Source: a virus (taxonomy: Duplodnaviria; Heunggongvirae; Uroviricota; Caudoviricetes). From it: a DNA stretch of 35,535 nt. This document shows positions 1 to 35,535 of the stretch, piece by piece. The translations under genes were made by a program, and so were the position numbers. The DNA is taken from the IMG/VR virus record IMGVR_UViG_2718218136_000003; one strand, 5' to 3'. The first letter of the stretch is position 1. Each line of letters starts with the position of its first letter. The notes below the pieces were generated by a model that was not told where the DNA came from, made no database searches, and saw nothing but the letters and a program-made list of their open reading frames with translations.

Positions 1-900
1 TTAACGCAATAATGGACAATCTGGTGGTAATCGACAACGCAACGCCGCCGGAAGTATTTCAATATGAAAGTTTTGTCCGCTCAACGGTTCGCCATCAAGA
101 TTAAAAGTGATTTCGTGTGGGGCTTGTATATCAAACCACGACGAAGCGCCTTCGATAATATTCGGGTTATCTTCGTCAGATTTTAAGGTTGATACGAGAG
201 CCGGAAGAATTTCATCGCCGGTAAAAATGCGCAGTTGCAGCAAGCCATCGTTAATTAACGCGTTCGGACACAATTGCTGACCGCCACCGGCCTGACGCCC
301 GTTACCAATACCAATGACCAGGGCGTCACCTTGCCAGTGAAAGTTTTCACCGCGGATTTCACAACGGTCCGGTTGCAGAGTATCCATGCGCATTAAGCCA
401 TGAATGATGTAAGAGACGCCACCCAGCGCGGCTTTTAATTTTTCCGGCGTTTCTGTGGTAATACGCGTCCCAAATCCGCCTGTCGCCATATTAATAAAAC
501 AGGTTTGTTTGTTGACCTGCGCCATATCTATCGCAATGGCGTTACCGGCAATTGCCAGTTTCAGCGCCTTATCCAGTGCCTCAGGAATCCCTACACTGGT
601 GGCAAAATCATTGGCGGTTCCTAATGGCAAAATTCCCAGCGCGGGTATGTCATCCCCCTCACACTGAATCAACGCCGTAGAAACTTCATTAATGGTGCCA
701 TCGCCACCACCGGCAATCACCGTTGCGACGCCCAACTTCCGGGCCTCCTCTACATATCGTGCGGCATCGCCTTTCTCCCAGGTGACCCGCACATGGATCG
801 TCATTCCTTCCTCACGCAACAGCATAATTGCTTCGCGCAAGGGTAGATTGTCAGTACTTTTGCCATTAAGAATCAGTAAGCTGGCGGGAAATTCTGCCAT
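1..900 (-). CDS. yegS: Lipid kinase YegS (DAG-kinase catalytic-domain family), complete 299 aa
   Basis: Full-length ORF with ATG at 898-900 and TAA at 1-3 on minus strand; translation carries the GGDGT nucleotide-binding motif typical of DAGK_cat/YegS kinases; synteny with yegR and yegQ. Confidence 0.88.
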
Positions 901-8490: not shown

Positions 8491-8648
8491 TTGACATTCA
8501 TATTTTTACTGCGTTGGTGCTGTTTTTTGACGGTTGAAAGGAGTTATCTCGGAGAGCTAAAGCTAACAACTTACAAATATTCAAAAGTAAGCTTCCTGTT
8601 GCTAACATAAGGTCGATTTTTTATGTGGATGATGCAAAAAGGATAGCT

Positions 8649-9380
8649 ATGGATACTATAATCGCTTTTCTATCACTCGCTTTTTTTGTTGCTTTTTTCA
8701 TCGGGTTAATCAAGCCATCACTGGTGCGAATGCCAAGCCGCAAACGTGCAAGTGCGGTTTATCTCGGAGGAGGTTTTGTATTGAGCATAATTGGTTCAAT
8801 ACTCTATCCAACAGAAAAAAGCCAGCCAGTTGCTAAAACTGAAACATCAACCGTTGTAGAACACCAAGTCCAAAAAACATTCGAATATGGTGAAAAAACA
8901 CTCAAGGAATATCGGAGCGAGCCAAAGAAAACTCGACACGATATTGTGAATAGTTACATTGACTTTAAGAAAGTTCCAGTCACCGCATCAGATGCATTTT
9001 ATGCCTGCATGAGTGAGTATACATTTACCAAAGATGATGAGTTGAAACTCGGTGATGTTCTTGGGTGGTGCTTTAATGATTATGAAAATGACCCGAGTTC
9101 ACTAAATAATAAAATCAATCTTGATACATTTCAGAGTAATTTTAGTGGTTGGGATGGTTCTTATCGTCCATTGGAAAAACTAATTAAAGATAATATGAAC
9201 GATGATTCATCTTATAAACATGTATCAACGGTATATCATTTAGTTTTGAATAAAGACCCGCACGCCATTGTGAAAACGACGTTTCGCGGCACTAATGCTT
9301 ATGGTGGCATGGTCAAACAGACTGTAGCAGCGCGAGTTGACGTGCGAACGGGTGAGATCGATTCAATACTCGACAATTAA
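8649..9380 (+). CDS. Uncharacterised membrane-anchored protein, 243 aa: two predicted N-terminal TM helices plus ~170-aa soluble domain; cargo in the tin/old slot
   Basis: ORF 8625-9380 trimmed to ATG at 8649 with AAGGA Shine-Dalgarno 6 nt upstream; hydrophobic stretches IIAFLSLAFFVAFFIGLI and AVYLGGGFVLSIIGSILY; AT-rich codon usage unlike the phage backbone. Confidence 0.6.
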   Translation: MDTIIAFLSLAFFVAFFIGLIKPSLVRMPSRKRASAVYLGGGFVLSIIGSILYPTEKSQPVAKTETSTVVEHQVQKTFEYGEKTLKEYRSEPKKTRHDIVNSYIDFKKVPVTASDAFYACMSEYTFTKDDELKLGDVLGWCFNDYENDPSSLNNKINLDTFQSNFSGWDGSYRPLEKLIKDNMNDDSSYKHVSTVYHLVLNKDPHAIVKTTFRGTNAYGGMVKQTVAARVDVRTGEIDSILDN

Positions 9381-9400
9381 ATAATATAGTGACAGCTCCG

Positions 9401-9460
9401 TCAGTGATGAAACTTGCTTTTAGTCTTGGCGGGGTTGAGCAATGAGTCTTGCAAGGTGTT
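9401..9460 (+). repeat. Copy B of the ~60-bp imperfect direct repeat, running into the ribosome-binding site and start codon of cargo gene 2
   Basis: Manual alignment to 8431-8490; copy B ends GTTAGC immediately before ATG 9464. Confidence 0.6.
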
Positions 9461-9463
9461 AGC

Positions 9464-10120
9464 ATGCGTAGAATGGAAGCTGCTTGGACGTGGGGTATTC
9501 ATATGAATTTAAAAATTTTCGGCATAATTGTCCTTTCTGCTTTGATGTTCGTTTTAGGTTTTTTTCTCGGTGGTTTTAATTGGGAATGGGCTGATAAGAA
9601 TTATGCAGGTGAGGTGGCGTTGTGGAGTATGTTAGGAGGGTGGTTATCCGCAATTGCAACTCTGTTTGCCGTGTTGGTTTCATTATATATGGCGTATCAA
9701 GCTACTCAGAATGAGATTGAAAAAATCAGGGTTACTCATGGAGTAAGTATGAGTGTCACTCATGACAATGAGTTAAGTTGTAATCTCATTATTCAGAACT
9801 TGAGAAATATGAAAGTGAATATTACTGGTGTTTTTTTGTCTCTAGGTAAATCATCAGGTAAGTACTCTTTGGATAAAGTAATTGACAATCGTAATATAAC
9901 GCTTTCATATAAAGGTGAAACAGAAAAGGTACAATTTGTAATCCATTCTGGGTATATTTGGTGGTCAATGTATAAATTATTCGATATGGATAAGAACATA
10001 GGTTTTGAAAAGGGTAAGATCTTGATAACAACCAACCTCAATACATATGAATTTGATTTGCCAAAAGAATATTTAAGAGCTTTTGAGAAAGCTTATTCGG
10101 AGTATCAGACAAAAAAATAA
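9464..10120 (+). CDS. Uncharacterised membrane-anchored protein, 218 aa: two predicted N-terminal TM helices plus ~150-aa soluble domain; cargo in the tin/old slot
   Basis: ORF 9449-10120 trimmed to ATG at 9464 with AAGGTG 5 nt upstream; hydrophobic stretches IFGIIVLSALMFVLGFFLGGF and WSMLGGWLSAIATLFAVLVSLYMAY; AT-rich. Confidence 0.6.
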   Translation: MRRMEAAWTWGIHMNLKIFGIIVLSALMFVLGFFLGGFNWEWADKNYAGEVALWSMLGGWLSAIATLFAVLVSLYMAYQATQNEIEKIRVTHGVSMSVTHDNELSCNLIIQNLRNMKVNITGVFLSLGKSSGKYSLDKVIDNRNITLSYKGETEKVQFVIHSGYIWWSMYKLFDMDKNIGFEKGKILITTNLNTYEFDLPKEYLRAFEKAYSEYQTKK

Positions 10121-19167: not shown

Positions 19168-19612
19168 GTTTAAGCGTTTTGAAGACCGGCTGACCGGACT
19201 GATTGAGTCGCTGTCACCGTCAGGGCGTCGGCGACTGAGCGCCGAACTGGCGAAACGTCTGCGGCAGAGTCAGCAGCGTCGGGTGATGGCACAGAAAGCC
19301 CCGGATGGCACACCCTATGCGCCACGCCAGCAGCAGAGCGCCAGAAAAAAGACCGGTCGTGTTAAGCGAAAAATGTTTGCGAAACTTATCACCAGTCGTT
19401 TTTTGCATATCCGCGCCAGCCCTGAACAGGCATCAATGGAGTTTTACGGCGGGAAGTCACCGAAAATCGCCAGCGTGCATCAGTTCGGTCTGTCGGAAGA
19501 AACCAGGAAAGACGGTAAGAAAATTGATTATCCGGCGCGTCCTCTGCTCGGCTTTACCGGTGAGGATGTGCAGATGATTGAAGAGATTATCCTGGCTCAC
19601 CTTGAGCGTTAG
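19160..19612 (+). CDS. S: Tail completion protein S, 150 aa
   Basis: 150-aa ORF, P2 S length and position. Confidence 0.85.
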   Translation: MNEFKRFEDRLTGLIESLSPSGRRRLSAELAKRLRQSQQRRVMAQKAPDGTPYAPRQQQSARKKTGRVKRKMFAKLITSRFLHIRASPEQASMEFYGGKSPKIASVHQFGLSEETRKDGKKIDYPARPLLGFTGEDVQMIEEIILAHLER

Positions 19613-19642
19613 TTTTATCCAGGCAGAGGCTGATGCGCAATT

Positions 19643-19683: not shown

Positions 19684-20469
19684 TTATGAGTGATTTTTAT
19701 TTGATGCTTTGTATTCTACAACCTTCTTATTGGCGTAAAGGAATTTTGTATATGACAGGAATATAACCAGACCTGAAATGAAATAGATGAGGGATGTTAT
19801 TAATAATGCTTTTTTTTGGCTGTTATTATCTTTAATCTCCTGACTTAACCATTCGGAGTCCTCCTCGTTTAGCTGTAAGAGCTTATTGCAGGCGATCTCA
19901 GGAAGTGTGTCTTTTATAAATACGTTTCGTAGCCTCTTGCAATCGGCAAGGCTATAAGTTTTATTGAATTCAACTGTTTTATTGTTGAAGGATAAAAGAA
20001 CTTTGTCACTATAAACATAGTACATCATATTTTTATATGGTATGCCTATGGCATCTCTTACTATAGCGGATTGTTTGTTGTGTATATAACATGCGAAGAG
20101 AATATAAATAATACTGGACAGAATTACAATTATTGTTTTAATTATGTGTGGTGGTTTTGTTATGTCACCCCAGAAGCGAGTAAGAAAAAAATACGATGTT
20201 TTTAGTTTTCCATCAATCAGCCCCTGCTGTATCATTCTCACATCTTCGATGCCTGATACATTGATTCCGTTAATTATTTTAAATAGTTGAATGTCGCGCC
20301 ATTTTTTGTCGAGCATTTTTAACTTTCTGTCTGAATACTCAAAATTGAAATGATGTGCAATAAACCTCATAAGATTACTTTTACCAAAGGTAATAAATGT
20401 TAATGCTATTAATAAAAATAGATACAAAGAGATAAACCACCACGCATTAGTCACATTATCACTGAACAT
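19684..20469 (-). CDS. Uncharacterised AT-rich integral membrane protein, 261 aa (P2 orf30 slot)
   Basis: Opposite strand to flanking tail genes; three strongly hydrophobic segments (WWFISLYLFLLIALTFITF, IIKTIIVILSSIIYILFACYI, ALLITSLIYFISGLVIFLSY); GAGGAGAG Shine-Dalgarno before ATG; Lys/Asn/Ile-rich composition. Confidence 0.6.
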   Translation of the reverse strand: MFSDNVTNAWWFISLYLFLLIALTFITFGKSNLMRFIAHHFNFEYSDRKLKMLDKKWRDIQLFKIINGINVSGIEDVRMIQQGLIDGKLKTSYFFLTRFWGDITKPPHIIKTIIVILSSIIYILFACYIHNKQSAIVRDAIGIPYKNMMYYVYSDKVLLSFNNKTVEFNKTYSLADCKRLRNVFIKDTLPEIACNKLLQLNEEDSEWLSQEIKDNNSQKKALLITSLIYFISGLVIFLSYTKFLYANKKVVEYKASNKNHS

Positions 20470-20552
20470 TACGCTCTCCTCGAATGTTGTATGGTCGTTC
20501 TACAAATGAATCCAGATAGCATAACTTTTATATATTGTGCAATCTCACACGC

Positions 20553-21188
20553 ATGAACACTCTCGCAAATATTCAGGAACTCGCGCGCGCACTGCGCAAC
20601 ATGATTCGTACCGGCCTTGTCGTCGAAACCAACCTTAAAGCCGGTCGCTGCCGTGTGCAGACCGGTGGCATGTGCACTGACTGGCTTCAGTGGCTGACCC
20701 ATCGTGCCGGACGTTCGCGCACATGGTGGGCACCTTCCGTGGGGGAACAGGTGCTGATTCTGGCTGTGGGCGGTGAACTCGACACGGCGTTCGTTCTGCC
20801 GGGGATTTATTCCGGCGATAACCCCGCGCCGTCTGCGTCGGCGGATGCCCTGCATATCCGTTTCCCTGACGGGGCGGTGATTGAGTATGAACCCGAAACC
20901 AGTGCACTCACGGTAAGCGGAATTAAAACGGTCAGCGTGACGGCTTCTGATTCTGTTACCGCCACGGTGCCGGTGGTCATGGTGAAAGCGTCAACCCGCA
21001 TCACCCTGGACACACCGGAGGTGGTCTGCACCAACAGGCTGATTACCGGCACGCTGGAAGTACAGAAGGGCGGGACGATGCGCGGCAACATTGAACACAC
21101 CGGCGGTGAACTCTCATCAAACGGTAAGGTACTGCATACCCATAAACACCCCGGCGACAGCGGCGGCACAACCGGGGGACCTCTATGA
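20553..21188 (+). CDS. V: Baseplate spike / hub protein V, 211 aa
   Basis: ORF 20535-21188 trimmed to MNTLANIQEL, giving the P2 V length. Confidence 0.85.
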   Translation: MNTLANIQELARALRNMIRTGLVVETNLKAGRCRVQTGGMCTDWLQWLTHRAGRSRTWWAPSVGEQVLILAVGGELDTAFVLPGIYSGDNPAPSASADALHIRFPDGAVIEYEPETSALTVSGIKTVSVTASDSVTATVPVVMVKASTRITLDTPEVVCTNRLITGTLEVQKGGTMRGNIEHTGGELSSNGKVLHTHKHPGDSGGTTGGPL

Positions 21189-21532
21189 CAGCGCGTTATC
21201 TCGGAATGAATCGCAGTGATGGCCTGACTGTCACTGACCTTGAGCATATCAGCCAGAGTATCGGCGATATCCTGCGCACACCGGTCGGCTCGCGGGTGAT
21301 GCGTCGTGATTACGGCTCGTTGCTGGCGTCAATGATTGACCAGCCGCAGACTCCGGCGCTTGAGTTGCAGATTAAGGTCGCCTGTTACATGGCAGTGCTG
21401 AAATGGGAACCCCGCGTCACCCTGTCATCCGTCACCACTGAGCGCAGTTTTGACGGGCGAATGACGGTCACGTTAACCGGCCAGCACAACGACACCGGCC
21501 AGCCACTTTCATTAACCATCCCTGTGAGTTGA
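21185..21532 (+). CDS. W: Baseplate protein W (gp25-like), 115 aa
   Basis: 115-aa ORF with ATGA overlap to V. Confidence 0.85.
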   Translation: MTARYLGMNRSDGLTVTDLEHISQSIGDILRTPVGSRVMRRDYGSLLASMIDQPQTPALELQIKVACYMAVLKWEPRVTLSSVTTERSFDGRMTVTLTGQHNDTGQPLSLTIPVS

Positions 21533-21536
21533 AACC

Positions 21537-22445
21537 ATGCCGATTATCGACCTGAACCAGCTACCCGCACCGGATGTGGTCGAGGAGCTGGACTTTGAAA
21601 CCATTCTCGCTGAACGCAAGGCGACACTGATTTCTCTTTACCCGGAAGACCAGCAGGAGGCGGTCGCCCGTACCCTGACACTGGAATCCGAGCCTCTCGT
21701 CAAACTGCTGGAGGAAAATGCTTATCGTGAGCTTATCTGGCGTCAGCGTGTGAATGAGGCCGCACGGGCGGTGATGCTGGCCTGTGCCGCCGGTAATGAC
21801 CTTGATGTGATTGGTGCCAATTACAACACCACGCGCCTGATTATTACTCCGGCAGATGATTCGACCATCCCGCCGACACCGGCAGTGATGGAATCTGACA
21901 CGGATTATCGTCTGCGTATTCAGCAGGCGTTTGAAGGCTTAAGCGTCGCCGGGTCGGTGGGAGCCTATCAGTATCATGGTCGCAGTGCCGACGGGCGTGT
22001 CGCGGATATCTCTGTCACCAGTCCGTCTCCGGCCTGCGTCACCATCTCCGTGCTGTCACGTGAAAATAACGGTGTGGCATCCGAAGATCTGCTGGCGGCG
22101 GTGCGTAACGCCCTTAATGGCGAGGACGTCAGGCCGGTGGCCGACCGCGTGACCGTGCAGTCTGCCGCCATTGTTGAATACCAGATAAACGCCACGCTTT
22201 ACCTTTACCCTGGTCCCGAAAGCGAACCCATCCGCGCTGCCGCCGTGAAAAAACTGGAAGCGTATATCACGGCACAGCACCGGCTGGGGCGTGACATCCG
22301 TCTGTCTGCCATTTATGCCGCTTTGCATGTGGAAGGTGTGCAGCGTGTCGAACTGGCTGCACCACTGGCCGACATCGTGCTCAACAGTACGCAGGCGTCT
22401 TTCTGTACTGAATACCGCGTCGTGACCGGAGGCTCGGATGAGTGA
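21537..22445 (+). CDS. J: Baseplate wedge protein J, 302 aa
   Basis: 302-aa ORF, P2 J length and position. Confidence 0.85.
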   Translation: MPIIDLNQLPAPDVVEELDFETILAERKATLISLYPEDQQEAVARTLTLESEPLVKLLEENAYRELIWRQRVNEAARAVMLACAAGNDLDVIGANYNTTRLIITPADDSTIPPTPAVMESDTDYRLRIQQAFEGLSVAGSVGAYQYHGRSADGRVADISVTSPSPACVTISVLSRENNGVASEDLLAAVRNALNGEDVRPVADRVTVQSAAIVEYQINATLYLYPGPESEPIRAAAVKKLEAYITAQHRLGRDIRLSAIYAALHVEGVQRVELAAPLADIVLNSTQASFCTEYRVVTGGSDE

Positions 22446-22968
22446 TTCGCGACTGCTGCCGACCGGCTCATCACCGCTTGAGGTCGCCGCCGCAAAAGCC
22501 TGTGCGGAAATTGAAAAAACGCCGGTCAGTATTCGTGAGCTGTGGAACCCGGATACCTGTCCGGCAAATTTGCTGCCGTGGCTGGCGTGGGCGTTTTCGG
22601 TCGACAGGTGGGATGAGAAGTGGCCGGAAGCGACAAAACGCGCCGTTATCCGCGATGCGTATTTCATCCACTGTCATAAAGGCACTATAGGTGCAATCCG
22701 GCGTGTGGTGGAGCCGCTCGGCTATCTCATCAACGTGACGGAGTGGTGGGAAAACAGTGACCCGCCCGGCACCTTCCGGCTTGATATTGGTGTACTGGAA
22801 AGTGGCATCACAGAGGCAATGTATCAGGAAATGGAACGGCTGATTGCTGATGCCAAACCTGCAAGCCGTCACCTTATTGGCCTGAACATTACCCGGGACA
22901 TTCCCGGCTACCTGTTCGCCGGTGGTGTGGCTTACGACGGCGATGTAATTACGGTTTACCCCGGATAA
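22438..22968 (+). CDS. I: Baseplate protein I, 176 aa
   Basis: 176-aa ORF, P2 I length and position. Confidence 0.85.
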   Translation: MSDSRLLPTGSSPLEVAAAKACAEIEKTPVSIRELWNPDTCPANLLPWLAWAFSVDRWDEKWPEATKRAVIRDAYFIHCHKGTIGAIRRVVEPLGYLINVTEWWENSDPPGTFRLDIGVLESGITEAMYQEMERLIADAKPASRHLIGLNITRDIPGYLFAGGVAYDGDVITVYPG

Positions 22969-22978
22969 GTGAGGAATA

Positions 22979-25297
22979 ATGAGCACAAAATTCAAAACCG
23001 TTATCACCACTGCCGGTGCAGCAAAGCTGGCAGCGGCAACCGCGCCGGGAGGGCGGAAGGTCAACATTACCACGATGGCCGTCGGGGATGGCGGTGGTAA
23101 ATTGCCTGTCCCGGATGCCGGACAGACCGGGCTTATCCATGAAGTCTGGCGACATGCGCTGAACAAAATCAGCCAGGACAAACGAAACAGTAATTATATT
23201 ATCGCAGAGCTGGTTATTCCGCCGGAGGTGGGCGGTTTCTGGATGCGTGAGCTTGGCCTGTACGATGATGCGGGAACGTTAATTGCCGTGGCGAACATGG
23301 CCGAAAGTTATAAGCCAGCCCTTGCCGAAGGCTCAGGACGTTCGCAGACCTGCCGCATGGTCATTATCGTCAGCAGTGTGGCCTCAGTGGATCTGACCAT
23401 CGACACCACAACGGTGATGGCGACGCAGGATTACGTTGATGACAAAATTGCAGAGCACGAACAGTCACGACGTCACCCGGACGCCTCGCTGACCGCAAAA
23501 GGTTTTACTCAGTTAAGCAATGCGACCAACAGCACGTCTGAAACACTGGCCGCAACGCCGAAAGCGGTTAAGGCCGCATATGACCTTGCTAACGGGAAAT
23601 ATACCGCACAGGACGCTACCACAGCGCGAAAAGGTCTTGTCCAGCTAAGTAGTGCGACCAACAGCATGTCTGAAACGCTCGCCGCAACACCAAAAGCGGT
23701 TAAGGCAGCGTATGACCTTGCTAACGGGAAATACACTGCACAGGACGCCACCACAGCGCGAAAAGGTCTTGTCCAGCTCAGTAGCGTCACCAACAGCGAT
23801 TCTGAAACGCTTGCGGCAACGCCAAAGGCGGTTAAGACAGCGTATGACCTTGCTAACGGGAAATACACTGCACAGGATGCCACCACCGCGCGAAAAGGTC
23901 TTGTCCAGCTCAGTAGCGCCACCAACAGCGATTCTGAAACGCTGGCTGCAACATCAAAAGCGGTGAAGTCTGCCTATGACAATGCTGAAAAACGTCTTCA
24001 GAAAGATCAGAACGGTGCGGATATTCCGGGAAAGGATACCTTCACGAAAAATATCGGTGCCTGTCGTGCTTATAGCGGCGCTTTGAGCACTGAAGCCGGA
24101 AACTGGACAACCGCTCAGTTTATTGAATGGCTGGATTCCCGTGGTGCATTTAATCATCCGTACTGGATGTGCAAAGGCTCCTGGTCATATGCAAATAACA
24201 AAATCATTACGGATACCGGATGTGGTGATATCCACCTGGCTGGTTGTGTCGTCGAGGTCATGGGAACTAAATCTGCAATCACTATCCGAGTGACCACGCC
24301 GACAACATCAAGCGGTGGCGGTACAACCAGCGCGCAATTCACTTACATAAATCATGGGGACGGCTACTCCCCCGGCTGGCGTCGTGACTGGAATCGTCAG
24401 GGCGACGCAATGACCGGAACGATTAATCAGGATGGCGGAAGCCAGAATGCCTATATGTCTACGGCCTTATGTTCAGGCACCAGAGGCGGCAAAAAATATC
24501 TCAGAAAGTTTCGTGGTGGAGAAGGAGACACTATCTGGCATGAAACAGTACAGGGCGGGGTAGTTCGCTGGGCGACTGGTAATACTGATGCTCAGGAAGA
24601 ATTATCACTCAGCTCCGCTTATGGTCTCCGTTCAAGAGGTGAGATTACATCAAGCAGTGCTAATGGTCTGCGCATTGCTTATGGCAATTATGGATTCTTT
24701 ATCAGGAATGATGGCAGCAGCACTTATTTTATGTTGACTAAATCAGGTGACAGATTAGGCACTTATAATAATTTAAGACCACTGATTATAAATGATGCCA
24801 CGGGTGCTGTATCAATGGGGCATGGCCTGAGTGTTACAGGTGATATTGTCTCAAGTACCAAAGTACGTGCCGGTAGCGGGAAAAAGTTCACGGTCAGCAG
24901 CAGCAATACATCCACGAAGGAAGCCGCATTCAATTTGTGGGGAAACTCAAGTCGTCCTGTGGTGGCTGAATTAGGTGATGATGCAGGCTGGCATTTTTAC
25001 AGTCAGAGAAATACAGATAACAGCATCACTTTTGCTGTTAACGGGCAGGTATCACCATCTAACTATGGAAACTTTGATTCACGCTATGTCCGGGATATCC
25101 GGCTTGGTGGTGCTGCCACATACAAACCTGCGAACAATGGTATGACATGGACACATCAGGCACCGTCCGGGTGTGTATATTCCGGCATTATTGTTCAGGA
25201 TACCGGCTCAAACTCTGCCGATAACATTGGTGGCGTATATTACAGACCGGTGCAGAAATACATTAACGGGACTTGGTATAACGTGGCGCAGGTATAA
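22979..25297 (+). CDS. H: Tail fibre protein H, 772 aa, with an internal tandem repeat array
   Basis: Long ORF after the baseplate genes; conserved N-terminus; central 44-aa repeats; Gly/Ser-rich C-terminal region. Confidence 0.88.
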   Translation: MSTKFKTVITTAGAAKLAAATAPGGRKVNITTMAVGDGGGKLPVPDAGQTGLIHEVWRHALNKISQDKRNSNYIIAELVIPPEVGGFWMRELGLYDDAGTLIAVANMAESYKPALAEGSGRSQTCRMVIIVSSVASVDLTIDTTTVMATQDYVDDKIAEHEQSRRHPDASLTAKGFTQLSNATNSTSETLAATPKAVKAAYDLANGKYTAQDATTARKGLVQLSSATNSMSETLAATPKAVKAAYDLANGKYTAQDATTARKGLVQLSSVTNSDSETLAATPKAVKTAYDLANGKYTAQDATTARKGLVQLSSATNSDSETLAATSKAVKSAYDNAEKRLQKDQNGADIPGKDTFTKNIGACRAYSGALSTEAGNWTTAQFIEWLDSRGAFNHPYWMCKGSWSYANNKIITDTGCGDIHLAGCVVEVMGTKSAITIRVTTPTTSSGGGTTSAQFTYINHGDGYSPGWRRDWNRQGDAMTGTINQDGGSQNAYMSTALCSGTRGGKKYLRKFRGGEGDTIWHETVQGGVVRWATGNTDAQEELSLSSAYGLRSRGEITSSSANGLRIAYGNYGFFIRNDGSSTYFMLTKSGDRLGTYNNLRPLIINDATGAVSMGHGLSVTGDIVSSTKVRAGSGKKFTVSSSNTSTKEAAFNLWGNSSRPVVAELGDDAGWHFYSQRNTDNSITFAVNGQVSPSNYGNFDSRYVRDIRLGGAATYKPANNGMTWTHQAPSGCVYSGIIVQDTGSNSADNIGGVYYRPVQKYINGTWYNVAQV
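23498..23980 (+). repeat. About 3.7 tandem copies of a 132-bp (44-codon) in-frame repeat inside H (KGLVQLSSATNSxSETLAATPKAVKAAYDLANGKYTAQDATTAR)
   Basis: Unit starts at 23498, 23630, 23762 and 23894; near-identical at nucleotide level; also produces mirror ORFs on the opposite strand. Confidence 0.9.
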
Positions 25298-25300
25298 TTT

Positions 25301-25828
25301 ATGCAGCATTTGATAAATATAACGGCAGGTAATCCAAAAACGGTTGAACAATATCAATTGACAAAAGACTTTGATGTTGTCTGGTTTTTTTCAGAAGATG
25401 GTAAGAACTGGTACGAAGAACAAAAGTATTTTGCTGATGACACGCTAAAAATAGCGTACGACAAAGATAATATCATCCGCTATGTGGAAAAGGATGTGAC
25501 AGCTATCAGACCGGATGGATTAAGTGTGGTTGAAGTGGCGGATATTACTGCTAACCGACGGGCGGACATTTCAGGGGACTGGATGTTTAAGGGCGGCAAA
25601 GTGATTAAACGCATTTATACGGCAGAGGAATTGCAGCAGCAGGCAGAAAACCGGAAAGCCAGACTTCTTGCAGATGCTGAATCCGTGATTTTGCCGCTGG
25701 AGCGCGCTGTCAGGCTGAATATGGCTACAGAGGAGGAGCGCACACGACTGGAAGCATGGGAACGCTACAGCGTTCTGGTCAGTCGTGTGGATCCTGCAAA
25801 TCCTGAATGGCCGGAAATGCCGCAATAA
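25301..25828 (+). CDS. G: Tail fibre assembly chaperone G, 175 aa
   Basis: 175-aa ORF immediately after H, P2 G length. Confidence 0.85.
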
Positions 25829-25905: not shown

Positions 25906-26032
25906 AAACGGACATGTCAAAGCGCAGAGTGAATGGCTAAGTCTAGCTCATTAGAAATGTTCGCTTCATGAAAATGGCTGCAGCAAGGATCTATCTCACT
26001 GCGGCCTCTTTACAATAACGAAATTTTGCGAG

Positions 26033-26788
26033 CTATTCCTTGGCCTCTTTATTTTTCTCGCCATCGCCAATGTAAAGAAGATAATCGTTTAAGGATATCC
26101 TTCCGGAGGGGCCGGTCCATGTTATCAATCCGTTCTCACGAAGATTAAATAATGCTTCCATGAACTCATTATCGTTAAAAGAATGATCCTCTGAGAACAG
26201 AATGTTCATTTTTCTCAATAGTTCTTCCACTTTAATCTTTTCATATCGCCTTATCAGACTTAGTGCTTTACGACGCATTAAGATTGTAGGTACTGCTTGT
26301 GAACGAATGGTTTTTTGTATTCCACTATCAAGAACTTTCTTGATCTTGCTCTCTAACTCTTTGATTTTAGTTTCATTATCTCCATTGGACTTAAGCTTTT
26401 CATCAACGATGCAAATAATTTCCTGACTAATGCTGTTCTTGAGGTTGTTTATTTTTTCTTCATTGTTGAGAATCTCATCAGAGCTTCCTGCATGGGGTTT
26501 TTTCCATATGTGCTGACGCATATCCGTTACCGTATCTCTCATCATAGAGAATGTATCTGAATATAACTTGTCAAATATTTTTTCCAGTCGTTCGACACTT
26601 GCCTGGATGTCTTTTGCTGCTTTAGTTGTCTCTTTAGAAGCCTCATTCGACATTTTATAAAAAACAAAAGAAAGCCAAATAGCCCCAATGGCGAGTACTA
26701 ATGAGGCTATTGTGGCAATAAAACCTATTATTGTTATTGCTGTATCTAATGTGCCTGCTGCATCTGTGACTACTGTTTCTGCTGCCAT
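26033..26788 (-). CDS. Uncharacterised AT-rich membrane-anchored coiled-coil protein, 251 aa (P2 Z/fun slot)
   Basis: Opposite strand to the tail genes; N-terminal hydrophobic helix (ITIIGFIATIASLVLAIGAIWLSFVFY) followed by a Lys/Glu-rich region; GAGGAT Shine-Dalgarno before ATG at 26788. Confidence 0.6.
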   Translation of the reverse strand: MAAETVVTDAAGTLDTAITIIGFIATIASLVLAIGAIWLSFVFYKMSNEASKETTKAAKDIQASVERLEKIFDKLYSDTFSMMRDTVTDMRQHIWKKPHAGSSDEILNNEEKINNLKNSISQEIICIVDEKLKSNGDNETKIKELESKIKKVLDSGIQKTIRSQAVPTILMRRKALSLIRRYEKIKVEELLRKMNILFSEDHSFNDNEFMEALFNLRENGLITWTGPSGRISLNDYLLYIGDGEKNKEAKE

Positions 26789-27179
26789 ATATCCTCAATA
26801 TTTAACCATACAGGGTAGCGTGTTTTAACCGCGGGGAAGTCGGGGTGGTGACACCCTAGCCTTACCCCGATTCCAGAGTATTTATTTATCATACCATTGA
26901 AACTATTTAATTTTATCGAAAATTTTGTCAGAGCGTGACTGAAAAGTCTTCAGCACGTCAAGCATATCGTCGCCGTTCAATTAACACTGAGCCTTTTCTT
27001 AGAGGGGTGGGCTGCGCAGTTGCGAGGTTATGCCCCAGTTCCTAGTTCCTCACTACATTCTAATTAAGCCGGCCAACTAAATGTCCGCTTTTCGCTCAAA
27101 GCAGACTGTCAGATTTGATAGCGTTTGGGCTATGTAAATTGTCAGTTGGAAAATGAGTGAGTGCAAATCATGGCAGGCT

Positions 27180-27298: not shown

Positions 27299-28489
27299 AT
27301 GAGTGACTATCATCACGGCGTGCAGGTGCTGGAGATTAACGACGGCACCCGCGTCATTTCCACCGTATCCACGGCCATTGTCGGCATGGTCTGCACGGCC
27401 AGCGATGCGGATGCGGAAACCTTCCCCCTCAATAAACCGGTGCTGATTACTAATGTGCAGAGCGCAATTGCAAAGGCCGGTAAAAAAGGCACGCTGGCGG
27501 CGTCGTTACAGGCCATCGCTGACCAGTCAAAACCGGTCACCGTTGTTGTGCGCGTGGAAGACGGCACCGGCGACGACGAGGAAACGAAACTTGCGCAGAC
27601 CGTTTCCAATATCATCGGCACCACCGACGAAAACGGTCAGTACACCGGACTGAAAGCCCTGCTGGCGGCGGAGTCGGTAACCGGTGTTAAACCGCGCATT
27701 CTCGGTGTGCCGGGACTGGACACCAAAGAGGTGGCTGTTGCACTGGCATCAGTCTGTCAGAAGCTGCGCGCTTTCGGGTATATCAGCGCATGGGGCTGTA
27801 AGACCATTTCCGAGGTGAAAGCCTACCGCCAGAATTTCAGCCAGCGTGAGCTGATGGTCATCTGGCCGGATTTCCTCGCATGGGATACGGTCACCAGTAC
27901 CACCGCCACCGCGTATGCCACCGCCCGTGCGCTGGGGCTGCGTGCCAGAATCGACCAGGAGCAGGGCTGGCATAAAACGCTGTCCAATGTCGGGGTGAAC
28001 GGTGTTACCGGCATCAGCGCATCTGTATTCTGGGATTTGCAGGAGTCCGGCACCGATGCTGACCTGCTTAACGAGTCAGGCGTTACTACGCTGATTCGCC
28101 GCGACGGTTTCCGCTTCTGGGGTAACCGTACCTGCTCTGATGACCCGCTGTTCCTCTTTGAAAACTACACCCGCACCGCGCAGGTGCTGGCCGACACGAT
28201 GGCTGAGGCGCACATGTGGGCGGTGGACAAGCCCATCACCGCAACGCTGATTCGCGACATCGTTGACGGCATCAATGCCAAATTCCGTGAGCTGAAAACA
28301 AACGGCTATATCGTGGATGCGACCTGCTGGTTCAGCGAAGAATCCAACGATGCGGAAACCCTCAAGGCCGGAAAACTGTATATCGACTACGACTATACCC
28401 CGGTGCCTCCTCTTGAAAACCTGACCCTGCGCCAGCGTATTACTGATAAATACCTGGCAAATCTGGTCACCTCGGTTAACAGCAATTAA
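27299..28489 (+). CDS. FI: Tail sheath protein FI, 396 aa
   Basis: 396-aa ORF, P2 FI length and position. Confidence 0.9.
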   Translation: MSDYHHGVQVLEINDGTRVISTVSTAIVGMVCTASDADAETFPLNKPVLITNVQSAIAKAGKKGTLAASLQAIADQSKPVTVVVRVEDGTGDDEETKLAQTVSNIIGTTDENGQYTGLKALLAAESVTGVKPRILGVPGLDTKEVAVALASVCQKLRAFGYISAWGCKTISEVKAYRQNFSQRELMVIWPDFLAWDTVTSTTATAYATARALGLRARIDQEQGWHKTLSNVGVNGVTGISASVFWDLQESGTDADLLNESGVTTLIRRDGFRFWGNRTCSDDPLFLFENYTRTAQVLADTMAEAHMWAVDKPITATLIRDIVDGINAKFRELKTNGYIVDATCWFSEESNDAETLKAGKLYIDYDYTPVPPLENLTLRQRITDKYLANLVTSVNSN

Positions 28490-34173: not shown

Positions 34174-35535
34174 TCACTTACCGTGGGGATTACGCGTGGT
34201 TTCCCCGGAGAAATTACGCATCAGCAGCGCGTAATTGAGCTCAAGATCCTGCGGGACCGGGAGCCACACAGTATAACCATCGCCTGGTGCTATCGGCATA
34301 GCTTCGCCTTTGGCGTTTTCCATGTGCTCAAGGGTAAAATTAATGTTGCCTTGCGGCGTCATCAGCTCAAGGCTGTCGCCAACGGAGAATTTATTTTTCA
34401 CCGCTACCGCCGCGAGGTCCCCCTTGCGCTCACCGGTAAACTCACCAACAAACTGCTGGCGGTCAGAAACTGAATAACCGTATTCGTAGTTCTGATAATC
34501 GTCGTGAGTATGACGACGCAGGAAACCTTCGGTATAGCCACGATGCGCCAGACCTTCCAGAGTTTCCAGCAGGCTGGTATCGAACGGTTTTCCCGCAGCG
34601 GCGTCATCGATAGCTTTGCGGTAAACCTGTGCGGTGCGTGCACAATAGTAGAAAGATTTGGTACGACCTTCGATTTTCAGCGAATGCACGCCCATTTTGG
34701 TCAGGCGTTCTACATGGGCGATGGCGCGCAGATCTTTCGAGTTCATGATGTAAGTGCCGTGCTCATCTTCAAACGCGGTCATATACTCGCCCGGACGCTG
34801 GGCCTCTTCGATCATAAACACTTTGTCGGTTGGTGCGCCGATACCCAGCGTCGGCTCAACATTTTGCACCGGAATCGGCTCGTACTTGTGTACGATGTTG
34901 CCAACATCATCTTCTTTCCCTTCCTGGACGTTGTACTCCCAGCGGCAGGCGTTGGTGCAGGTGCCCTGGTTCGGGTCGCGCTTGTTGATATAGCCAGAGA
35001 GCAGGCAGCGACCGGAGTAGGCCATGCACAGCGCGCCGTGAACGAAGATCTCGATCTCCATATCCGGCACCTGATTGCGGATCTCTTCAATCTCTTCCAG
35101 CGACAGCTCGCGAGAGAGGATCACGCGGGTCAGGCCCATTTGCTGCCAGAATTTCACCGTCGCCCAGTTCACGGCGTTAGCCTGCACCGAAAGGTGGATC
35201 GGCATTTCAGGGAAGTGCTCACGCACCAGCATAATCAGCCCTGGATCGGACATAATCAGCGCATCCGGCCCCATTTCCACCACCGGTTTCAGGTCACGGA
35301 TAAAGGTTTTCAGCTTGGCGTTGTGCGGTGCAATGTTGACCACGACATAAAACTTTTTCCCCAGCGCGTGGGCTTCATTGATGCCGAGCTGAAGATTTTC
35401 GTGGTTGAATTCGTTGTTGCGCACACGCAGGGAATAACGCGGCTGGCCCGCATAAACAGCATCTGCGCCATAAGCGAAAGCGTAACGCATATTTTTCAGC
35501 GTTCCCGCCGGGGAAAGGAGTTCCGGTTTAAACAT
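34174..35535 (-). CDS. yegQ: Peptidase U32 family protein YegQ (tRNA hydroxylation protein), complete 453 aa
   Basis: Full-length minus-strand ORF starting at the window edge (ATG at 35533-35535); U32 family features including a Cys-rich segment (CMAYSGRC…CTNACRWEY); backbone-like GC content. Confidence 0.85.
   Translation of the reverse strand: MFKPELLSPAGTLKNMRYAFAYGADAVYAGQPRYSLRVRNNEFNHENLQLGINEAHALGKKFYVVVNIAPHNAKLKTFIRDLKPVVEMGPDALIMSDPGLIMLVREHFPEMPIHLSVQANAVNWATVKFWQQMGLTRVILSRELSLEEIEEIRNQVPDMEIEIFVHGALCMAYSGRCLLSGYINKRDPNQGTCTNACRWEYNVQEGKEDDVGNIVHKYEPIPVQNVEPTLGIGAPTDKVFMIEEAQRPGEYMTAFEDEHGTYIMNSKDLRAIAHVERLTKMGVHSLKIEGRTKSFYYCARTAQVYRKAIDDAAAGKPFDTSLLETLEGLAHRGYTEGFLRRHTHDDYQNYEYGYSVSDRQQFVGEFTGERKGDLAAVAVKNKFSVGDSLELMTPQGNINFTLEHMENAKGEAMPIAPGDGYTVWLPVPQDLELNYALLMRNFSGETTRNPHGK

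Follow-up and report, generated by a model that had tools for sequence, protein, structure and literature searches.

The tail fibre protein H of bacteriophage P2 is a 669 aa protein that is accompanied by a chaperone, G. That P2-type H is a mosaic has been known for a long time, and the P2 fibre genes were reportedly recognised as recombinational mosaics by Haggard-Ljungquist and colleagues in 1992, a view that has been held ever since. One of the domains found in prophage fibres is PF03406 (Phage_fiber_2 or Pf2, the "phage tail fibre repeat"), which is listed among the conserved domains of these proteins (PMC3368898) and is described as structurally uncharacterised (PMC3368898, PMC8078820). 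In some of the EPcl fibres of EHEC prophages the Pf2 repeat is located between collagen segments (PMC3368898). The repeat is discussed neither in a tail-fibre structure atlas preprint nor in a 2026 survey of P2-like viruses. Phage Mu alternates between the fibre proteins S and S' by means of its invertible G segment (PMC11915804), and the receptor specificity of fibres of this kind is assigned to their distal part (PMC7460101, PMC9594776).

The H gene considered here belongs to a complete P2-like prophage which constitutes the whole stretch of DNA that was analysed (35,535 nucleotides, IMG/VR record IMGVR_UViG_2718218136_000003, hereafter the window). The prophage contains an integrase and replication gene A and is flanked by a yegS-like gene and a U32 peptidase gene. 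The cargo ORFs of the window have no match in PADLOC, Pfam or NCBIfam, and their matches in PHROGs are to families of unknown function only. The features of H and of the gene that follows it are listed below.

22979..25297, + strand: tail fibre gene H of a P2-like (Peduovirus) prophage, 772 aa (ORF list, Pfam, annotated relatives)
22979..23431, + strand: N-terminal domain, conserved proximal part, aa 1-151 (PF12571 Phage_tail_fib, E 1.9e-58)
23498..23629, + strand: unit A, aa 174-217, a 29-aa motif head followed by the 15-aa connector LANGKYTAQDATTAR (reading frame, Pfam, pairwise identity)
23630..23761, + strand: unit B, aa 218-261, 87.1% identical to A and 89.4% to C
23762..23893, + strand: unit C, aa 262-305, with a 40-nt exact run in common with unit B
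23894..23980, + strand: motif head of the terminal unit D, aa 306-334, the fourth PF03406 stretch
23981..24028, + strand: connector of unit D, NAEKRLQKDQNGADIP, aa 335-350, of the Mu S type and the second module joint (alignment to Mu S)
24029..25294, + strand: mosaic distal part, presumed receptor-binding region (solved-structure sequence search, PF21446)
25301..25828, + strand: tail fibre assembly (chaperone) gene G (PF02413 Caudo_TAP, E 5.5e-34)

The ORFs of this cluster follow each other in the order 20535..21188, 21185..21532, 21537..22445, 22438..22968, H and 25301..25828, and the corresponding ORFs of relatives are annotated as V, W, J, I, H and G. The 772 aa product carries the PF12571 N-terminal tail-collar fibre domain that is typical of P2-type H, has the expected position in the cluster with the chaperone gene next to it, and is annotated as a tail fiber protein in the complete E. 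coli genomes and phage records listed. Its Pfam matches are PF12571, four copies of PF03406, and PF21446. The N-terminal domain, which would attach the fibre to the baseplate, shows 97-100% amino-acid identity to the best 80 IMG/VR P2-like loci. The distal part is composed of a Mu S'-like segment (aa 334-487; PDB 8ju3, E 3.6e-91 for the whole match) and a Mu S-like C-terminus (aa 544-771; 5yvq, E 5.6e-64), with the Gp34_trimer domain (PF21446) at aa 541-604. H is a known gene holding a known repeat family, and neither is new in itself.

The repeats are placed between the P2-type N-terminal domain and the mosaic distal part. Tandem Repeats Finder reports one array in the window (23525-23980, period 132, 3.5 copies, 88% matches, score 686), and in the reading frame of H the 44-codon (132-nt) units start at 23498, 23630, 23762 and 23894, corresponding to aa 174, 218, 262 and 306. 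An earlier note on this DNA, which had described in-frame 132-bp tandem repeats at 23498-23980 in the 772-aa H, gave coordinates, unit length and copy count correctly, and it also rightly held that the array lengthens the protein, as P2-type H with two units has 669 aa. Identities of 80-89% over 132 nt show that the array is not due to chance. PF03406 matches H in four stretches with 248.8 bits (cut-off 22; E 1.7e-75), of which the best covers aa 170-210 of H and profile positions 1-41 of 42; the score is above the gathering cut-off of the family and the motif is repeated within a phage tail fibre protein. Units A, B and C read KG(F/L)(T/V)QLS..TNS.SETLAATPKAVK.AYDLANGKYTAQDATTAR, whereas unit D retains the first 29 residues and then continues with its own connector, so that the match to the other units stops about 29 codons in, at 23980. 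The description of the array as three full copies and one partial copy is accurate in so far as D matches the other units over these 29 codons, but according to the Pfam definition all four are complete repeats and D is distinct only in its connector. This connector aligns with Mu S residues of about 135-160 (5yvq, 8ju3), and since the motif copy of Mu S has the same connector, D is a complete unit of a "terminal" type and not a decayed copy.

Contrary to what the earlier note had stated, and to what would be expected of a hypervariable (contingency-type) locus, the units are not near-identical at the nucleotide level. The full units are only 80-89% identical (87.1% for A and B, 89.4% for B and C, 79.5% for A and C), unit D is 75-89% identical to the others over its first 87 nt, and the longest exact direct repeat in the array is 40 nt (at 23706 and 23838), the next being 31 and 29 nt. 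Most of the differences are synonymous, with a between-unit dS of 0.35-0.92 and a dN of 0.05-0.10, which implies that the peptide is under purifying selection and that the duplications are old.

The age of the array is further apparent from its relatives. Related loci were fetched (n=117) and every unit was typed against window units A to D. The A-B-C-D order is found in 33 loci. Of the 152 units in the 38 other four-copy arrays, which comprise 30 distinct sequences, 145 resemble the window unit in the same position more than any other window unit (38/38 for unit A, 32/38 for B and 37/38 for C), the four-copy loci with such positional orthology including Yersinia phage vB_YpM_115. Phages whose arrays are 92-97% identical keep the same order. 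Since units in the same position are the closest to each other, the array is older than the divergence of these phages. The median dS of orthologous units (0.13-0.29) exceeds that of the first 173 codons of H, which is only 0.07 relative to other four-copy loci; this fits conversion or exchange of units and could also reflect a relaxed codon constraint. The second unit is C-like in six of the 38 four-copy arrays and one locus (L052) contains two units that are 100% identical, hence whole-unit conversion or fresh duplication does occur within the family.

Copy number was counted by profile HMM; a regular expression misses divergent units in seven loci. Complete H ORFs contain one unit in 3 loci, two in 28, three in 16, four in 37 and five in 5, and database proteins have up to six, in a sample of relatives which is biased in that it consists of the best 80 IMG/VR loci and of 120 listed database proteins, all of them of 613 aa or less. 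Across the relatives, successive units are spaced by 44 aa without exception (542 of 542), and H proteins that have a distal type in common vary in length by whole units (772/728, 764/720, 736/692, 749/705 and 709/665/621 aa). The earlier note had proposed to compare copy number among relatives and had named invariance as the outcome that would speak against its reading; what the comparison reveals is variation from one to six units.

Within the fibre type of the window (distal 438 aa, 96-99% identical) ten other loci have four units and three have three units, giving proteins of 772 and 728 aa, respectively. The junctions in the three 728-aa forms map to three different intervals (unit 1 offset 21-47, unit 1 offset 108-119, and the boundary of units 2 and 3), which implies at least three independent one-unit events in this fibre type alone. 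The flanks of the three-unit sisters are 96-97% identical to the window and the four-unit sisters fall in the same range, and a difference of 3-4% in the flanks identifies the one-unit events as evolutionary rather than recent. Very close relatives, by comparison, do not differ in copy number in the way known of contingency loci. The 2319-nt gene is present at 97.7-99.9% identity in 40 of 40 complete E. coli genomes among the matches listed, and four units are likewise kept by E. coli H10 and LR-51, where identity along the gene is 99.9%, and by a locus that is 99.6% identical over 6.4 kb (L038). The constancy of four units in close relatives rules out a recent expansion, which the dS values and the 145 of 152 positional matches likewise contradict, and makes an assembly artefact very unlikely. 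The copy-number change that had been predicted from the repeats is real, with one to six units and three junctions among relatives, but it appears to be slow, the close relatives keeping four units. Furthermore, copy number is not free of the distal type, because a P2-type terminal unit is associated with two units in every case sampled whereas the Mu-S-type connector is associated with three to five.

The last unit has an additional significance. When each relative is compared in register with the window from the start of the last unit, about 29 loci, among them all P2-type two-unit alleles, lose homology to window H just after ...AVK of this unit, and about 20 loci do so just after ...NGADIP. 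In the relatives, distal parts of at least nine different lengths follow one and the same proximal part and array. As the last unit is the most frequent end point of homology between relatives, it is the main joint at which modules are swapped. The H protein of phage L-413C provides a further break, in this case inside unit A, where the homology to P2 ends at aa 207 (PMC7460101). The similarity extends to a lambdoid stf gene (in a J-lom-stf-tfa context), which contains the same 44-aa unit, connector included, at 77-82% nucleotide identity to the window units in an ungapped comparison; megablast aligns this gene to the window at 84.6% over 207 nt. The motif is therefore a stretch of DNA homology common to otherwise unrelated fibre genes, which is in agreement with the mosaic view of the P2 fibre genes.

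Taken together, the likely picture is that of an old array, composed of positional orthologues whose peptide is under purifying selection, in which whole units are gained or lost on rare occasions and the last unit serves as the swap joint. It is proposed that the four tandem PF03406 copies form a modular stretch of the P2-type H shaft between the N-terminal domain and an interchangeable distal part. Whole 132-nt units would on rare occasions be added or removed in frame through unequal homologous recombination or replication slippage involving the diverged units, which would generate the series from one to six, and one unit may also be converted into another. The last unit and its connector, a DNA motif common to P2-like, Mu-type and lambdoid fibre genes, would act as the main homologous-recombination joint for distal modules. 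RecA-dependent recombination in E. coli has a minimal length requirement close to the exact runs of 23-40 nt, and a divergence of 10-20% should make recombination between units rare. Each unit would be expected to add a fixed length to the trimeric shaft. An AlphaFold2 monomer model of aa 140-380, made with a 20-sequence alignment, has a mean pLDDT of 38.9, too low for its fold to carry meaning, and the solved structures that contain the motif are Mu S fibre entries only.

Several other explanations have to be weighed against this one. If the copies had expanded recently and were near-identical they would slip or recombine often, and lysogens would be mixed in fibre length and perhaps in host range. 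The differences in copy number among relatives are in line with such a hypermutable locus, as are the exact runs of 23-40 nt between units, which represent a minimal substrate, and the two identical units of L052, which point to a fresh duplication or conversion somewhere in the family. However, with units that are only 80-89% identical (dS 0.35-0.92), an A-B-C-D order that phages with 92-97% identity in the array have in common, the same gene length in relatives at 99.6-99.9% identity and in all 40 complete genomes listed, and three-unit sister alleles whose flanks differ by 3-4% and whose changes are thus not recent, this explanation is very improbable. That the copy number in the window is an artefact of an array collapsed or inflated during assembly is hardly credible. 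It is true that contig ends truncate many of the H proteins in databases, which bear the label partial, and that a 358-member cluster is represented by a protein whose contig ends 26 aa past the last unit, exactly at the ...NGADIP joint. Nevertheless the identical 2319-nt gene occurs in all 40 complete E. coli genomes listed and in independent phage and IMG/VR records, and exact repeats of no more than 40 nt mean that ordinary reads and k-mers, being longer than this, resolve the array. Only two of the 120 database proteins listed stop in or right after the array, the others ending more than 60 aa downstream, although a listing confined to proteins of 613 aa or less gives a biased measure of contig breaks. 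The supposed liability of the locus to collapse in short-read assemblies is accordingly weak. Matched genomes contain a median of two and up to eleven matching places (among the genomes listed), and contig breaks are better explained by homology between the different fibre genes of one genome, which probably causes them, than by collapse within the array.

The two remaining alternatives concern the consequences of copy number. It is possible, if on balance unlikely, that copy number has no effect on fitness and that the array is a recombination adaptor only, the gain and loss of units being a harmless by-product. The clustering of homology breaks at the last unit, the DNA-level similarity of the motif in P2-like, Mu and lambdoid fibres and the tolerance of several copy numbers by each distal type would all be compatible with this, whereas a dN/dS of about 0.1 on every unit indicates that the peptide itself is needed and not the DNA homology alone, and the association of P2-type terminal units with two units and of the Mu-S-type connector with three to five also argues against it. 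Conversely, copy number may be adaptive, in that the reach of the fibre is matched to the depth of the O-antigen or capsule and host range or adsorption is altered accordingly. Recurrent and independent one-unit changes inside a single distal type, always of whole units at a fixed period, speak for such an effect, but receptor specificity is credited to the distal part (PMC7460101, PMC9594776), and an adaptive role appears doubtful. Equally doubtful is the broader idea that the 44-residue unit is a natural length module whose gain and loss tune the reach of the fibre tip, with the motif also serving as a universal splice site for Mu-like and lambdoid distal modules. If this were true, copy number would constitute a second, independent axis of host-range evolution and the engineering of fibres and tailocins would have a design rule at hand.

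The favoured explanation, an old array under purifying selection with rare whole-unit change and a swap joint at its end, has some practical consequences, although its discovery value is small and its practical value modest. Annotators can rely on the four-unit state of this gene, and should not infer recent expansion from the mere presence of tandem repeats in a fibre gene. The comparison yields a clean natural series of one to six units at a fixed period of 44 residues, and anyone constructing chimeric P2 or tailocin fibres could take the joints after ...AVK and ...NGADIP as a guide.

Compared with known systems, window H resembles H of bacteriophage P2 in its PF12571 domain, in the gene order V-W-J-I-H-G with the chaperone G, and in the presence of the repeat motif, and unit A of the 669-aa P2-type alleles in the sample has 96-100% nucleotide identity with that of the window. 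P2-type H differs in having two units, one full unit and a terminal head that continues into ...AVKTVMDETNKKAPL, while window H has three full units and a terminal unit with a Mu-S-type connector that leads into another distal part. The 772-aa tail fiber protein of E. coli prophages (H10, LR-51) is essentially the same gene, 97.7-99.9% identical over 2319 nt. Yersinia phages vB_YpM_115, 117 and 46 are 95-97.5% identical to window H over the first 2129 nt and unlike it in the last ~190 nt, and vB_YpM_115 and vB_YpM_46 have the A-B-C-D array of the window; H of Yersinia phage P37 has three units (A-B-D) and 720 aa. The Stf proteins of lambda and lambdoid phages (PF03406) contain the same 44-aa unit including the connector LANGKYTAQDATTA(R/Q), but have a different N-terminal attachment domain and belong to a siphovirus context. 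Like window H, the S and S' proteins of phage Mu (PDB 5yvq, 8ju3, 9ki1) carry the motif with the same connector, …AVKIAMDNANARLAKDRNGADIP…, and aa 334-487 and 544-771 of window H have homologues in their distal segments; Mu has one copy rather than an array, and window H combines S- and S'-like segments in one polypeptide. The EHEC prophage fibres EPclA-D also have shaft segments that vary by whole structural periods from one prophage copy to another (PMC3368898), but their variable elements are Gly-X-Y triplets and heptads of collagen-like and coiled-coil type, as opposed to the 44-aa Pf2 unit which sets the period in window H.

The tail fibre gene H carries four in-frame 44-codon units at 23498-23980, and these have diverged further from their counterparts than the sequence beside them. 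When the window was compared with the other four-copy relatives, the median dS was 0.13-0.29 in the repeat units and 0.07 in the adjoining N-terminal 173 codons (22979-23497), so that synonymous divergence in the units is 2 to 4 times that of their immediate neighbours. Because dS is higher in the units than in the adjacent N-terminal codons, it hints at conversion between units or at exchange with other fibre genes. Among the arrays examined, only that of one related locus, L052 (IMGVR_UViG_3300045988_127872), contains identical adjacent units; its units 2 and 3, of 132 nt each, are 100% identical, which is evidently the trace of a recent duplication or conversion. This is the type of event that the earlier note had assumed for the array of the window.

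Two open reading frames overlap the array outside the frame of H:
23509-23925, minus strand, 138-aa ORF
23652-23966, plus strand, in a frame other than that of H, 104-aa ORF
The translations of both are also repetitive. Neither ORF has the look of a genuine gene; they seem to arise simply because the repeated sequence lacks stop codons in these frames.

A contig ends shortly downstream of the array in the related locus L119 (GCA_026307195.1, contig JAGFGG010000058.1, 3001-4212). The H gene there has five units and is cut by the contig end, which falls 26 amino acids past the last unit and precisely at the ...NGADIP joint. Since the cluster of this H at 90% identity comprises 358 member sequences, many assemblies may break at the same joint.

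Elsewhere in the prophage, ORFs lie at three positions considered as possible cargo sites, and host genes flank the element:
1-900, minus strand, yegS-like lipid kinase gene (DAGK_cat, YegS_C)
8625-10120, plus strand, 251-aa and 223-aa ORFs downstream of replication gene A
within 19684-20855, minus strand, 261-aa and 128-aa ORFs directly upstream of baseplate gene V
26033-26788, minus strand, 251-aa ORF between the chaperone gene G and the tail gene at 27299
34174-35535, minus strand, U32 peptidase gene (yegQ-like)

In four close relatives (L038, L084, L075 and L094) the alignment with the window breaks off at about 25915 and resumes at about 27081. Because they match on both sides and differ inside, the interval 25915-27081 is a variable cargo slot. 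The sole match of its ORF is PHROG 36054, of unknown function, with nothing above cut-off in Pfam, PADLOC or NCBIfam. In P2 the Z/fun cargo slot occupies the same position. The interruption of another alignment suggests a second variable slot upstream of V (19684-20855), as L089 and L105 align as far as 19479-19614, restart at 20553 and leave the gap unaligned. The 261-aa ORF here matches PHROG 2407 (function unknown) and the 128-aa ORF has no match in any library. The region downstream of A may be a third cargo position; its 251-aa and 223-aa ORFs match PHROG 3403 and 16957, respectively, both of unknown function, and neither matched Pfam, PADLOC or NCBIfam. As for the flanks, E. coli K-12 carries a cryptic P2 remnant at the same chromosomal site.

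The distal part of H (amino acids 334-771, 23978-25291) contains both a segment closely resembling Mu S' (8ju3 residues 177-332) and a Mu S-like C-terminus (5yvq residues 260-503). In Mu, S and S' belong to alternative fibres, the choice between which is made by inversion of the G segment (PMC11915804), whereas in the H protein of the window the S'-like and S-like segments are joined in a single polypeptide.
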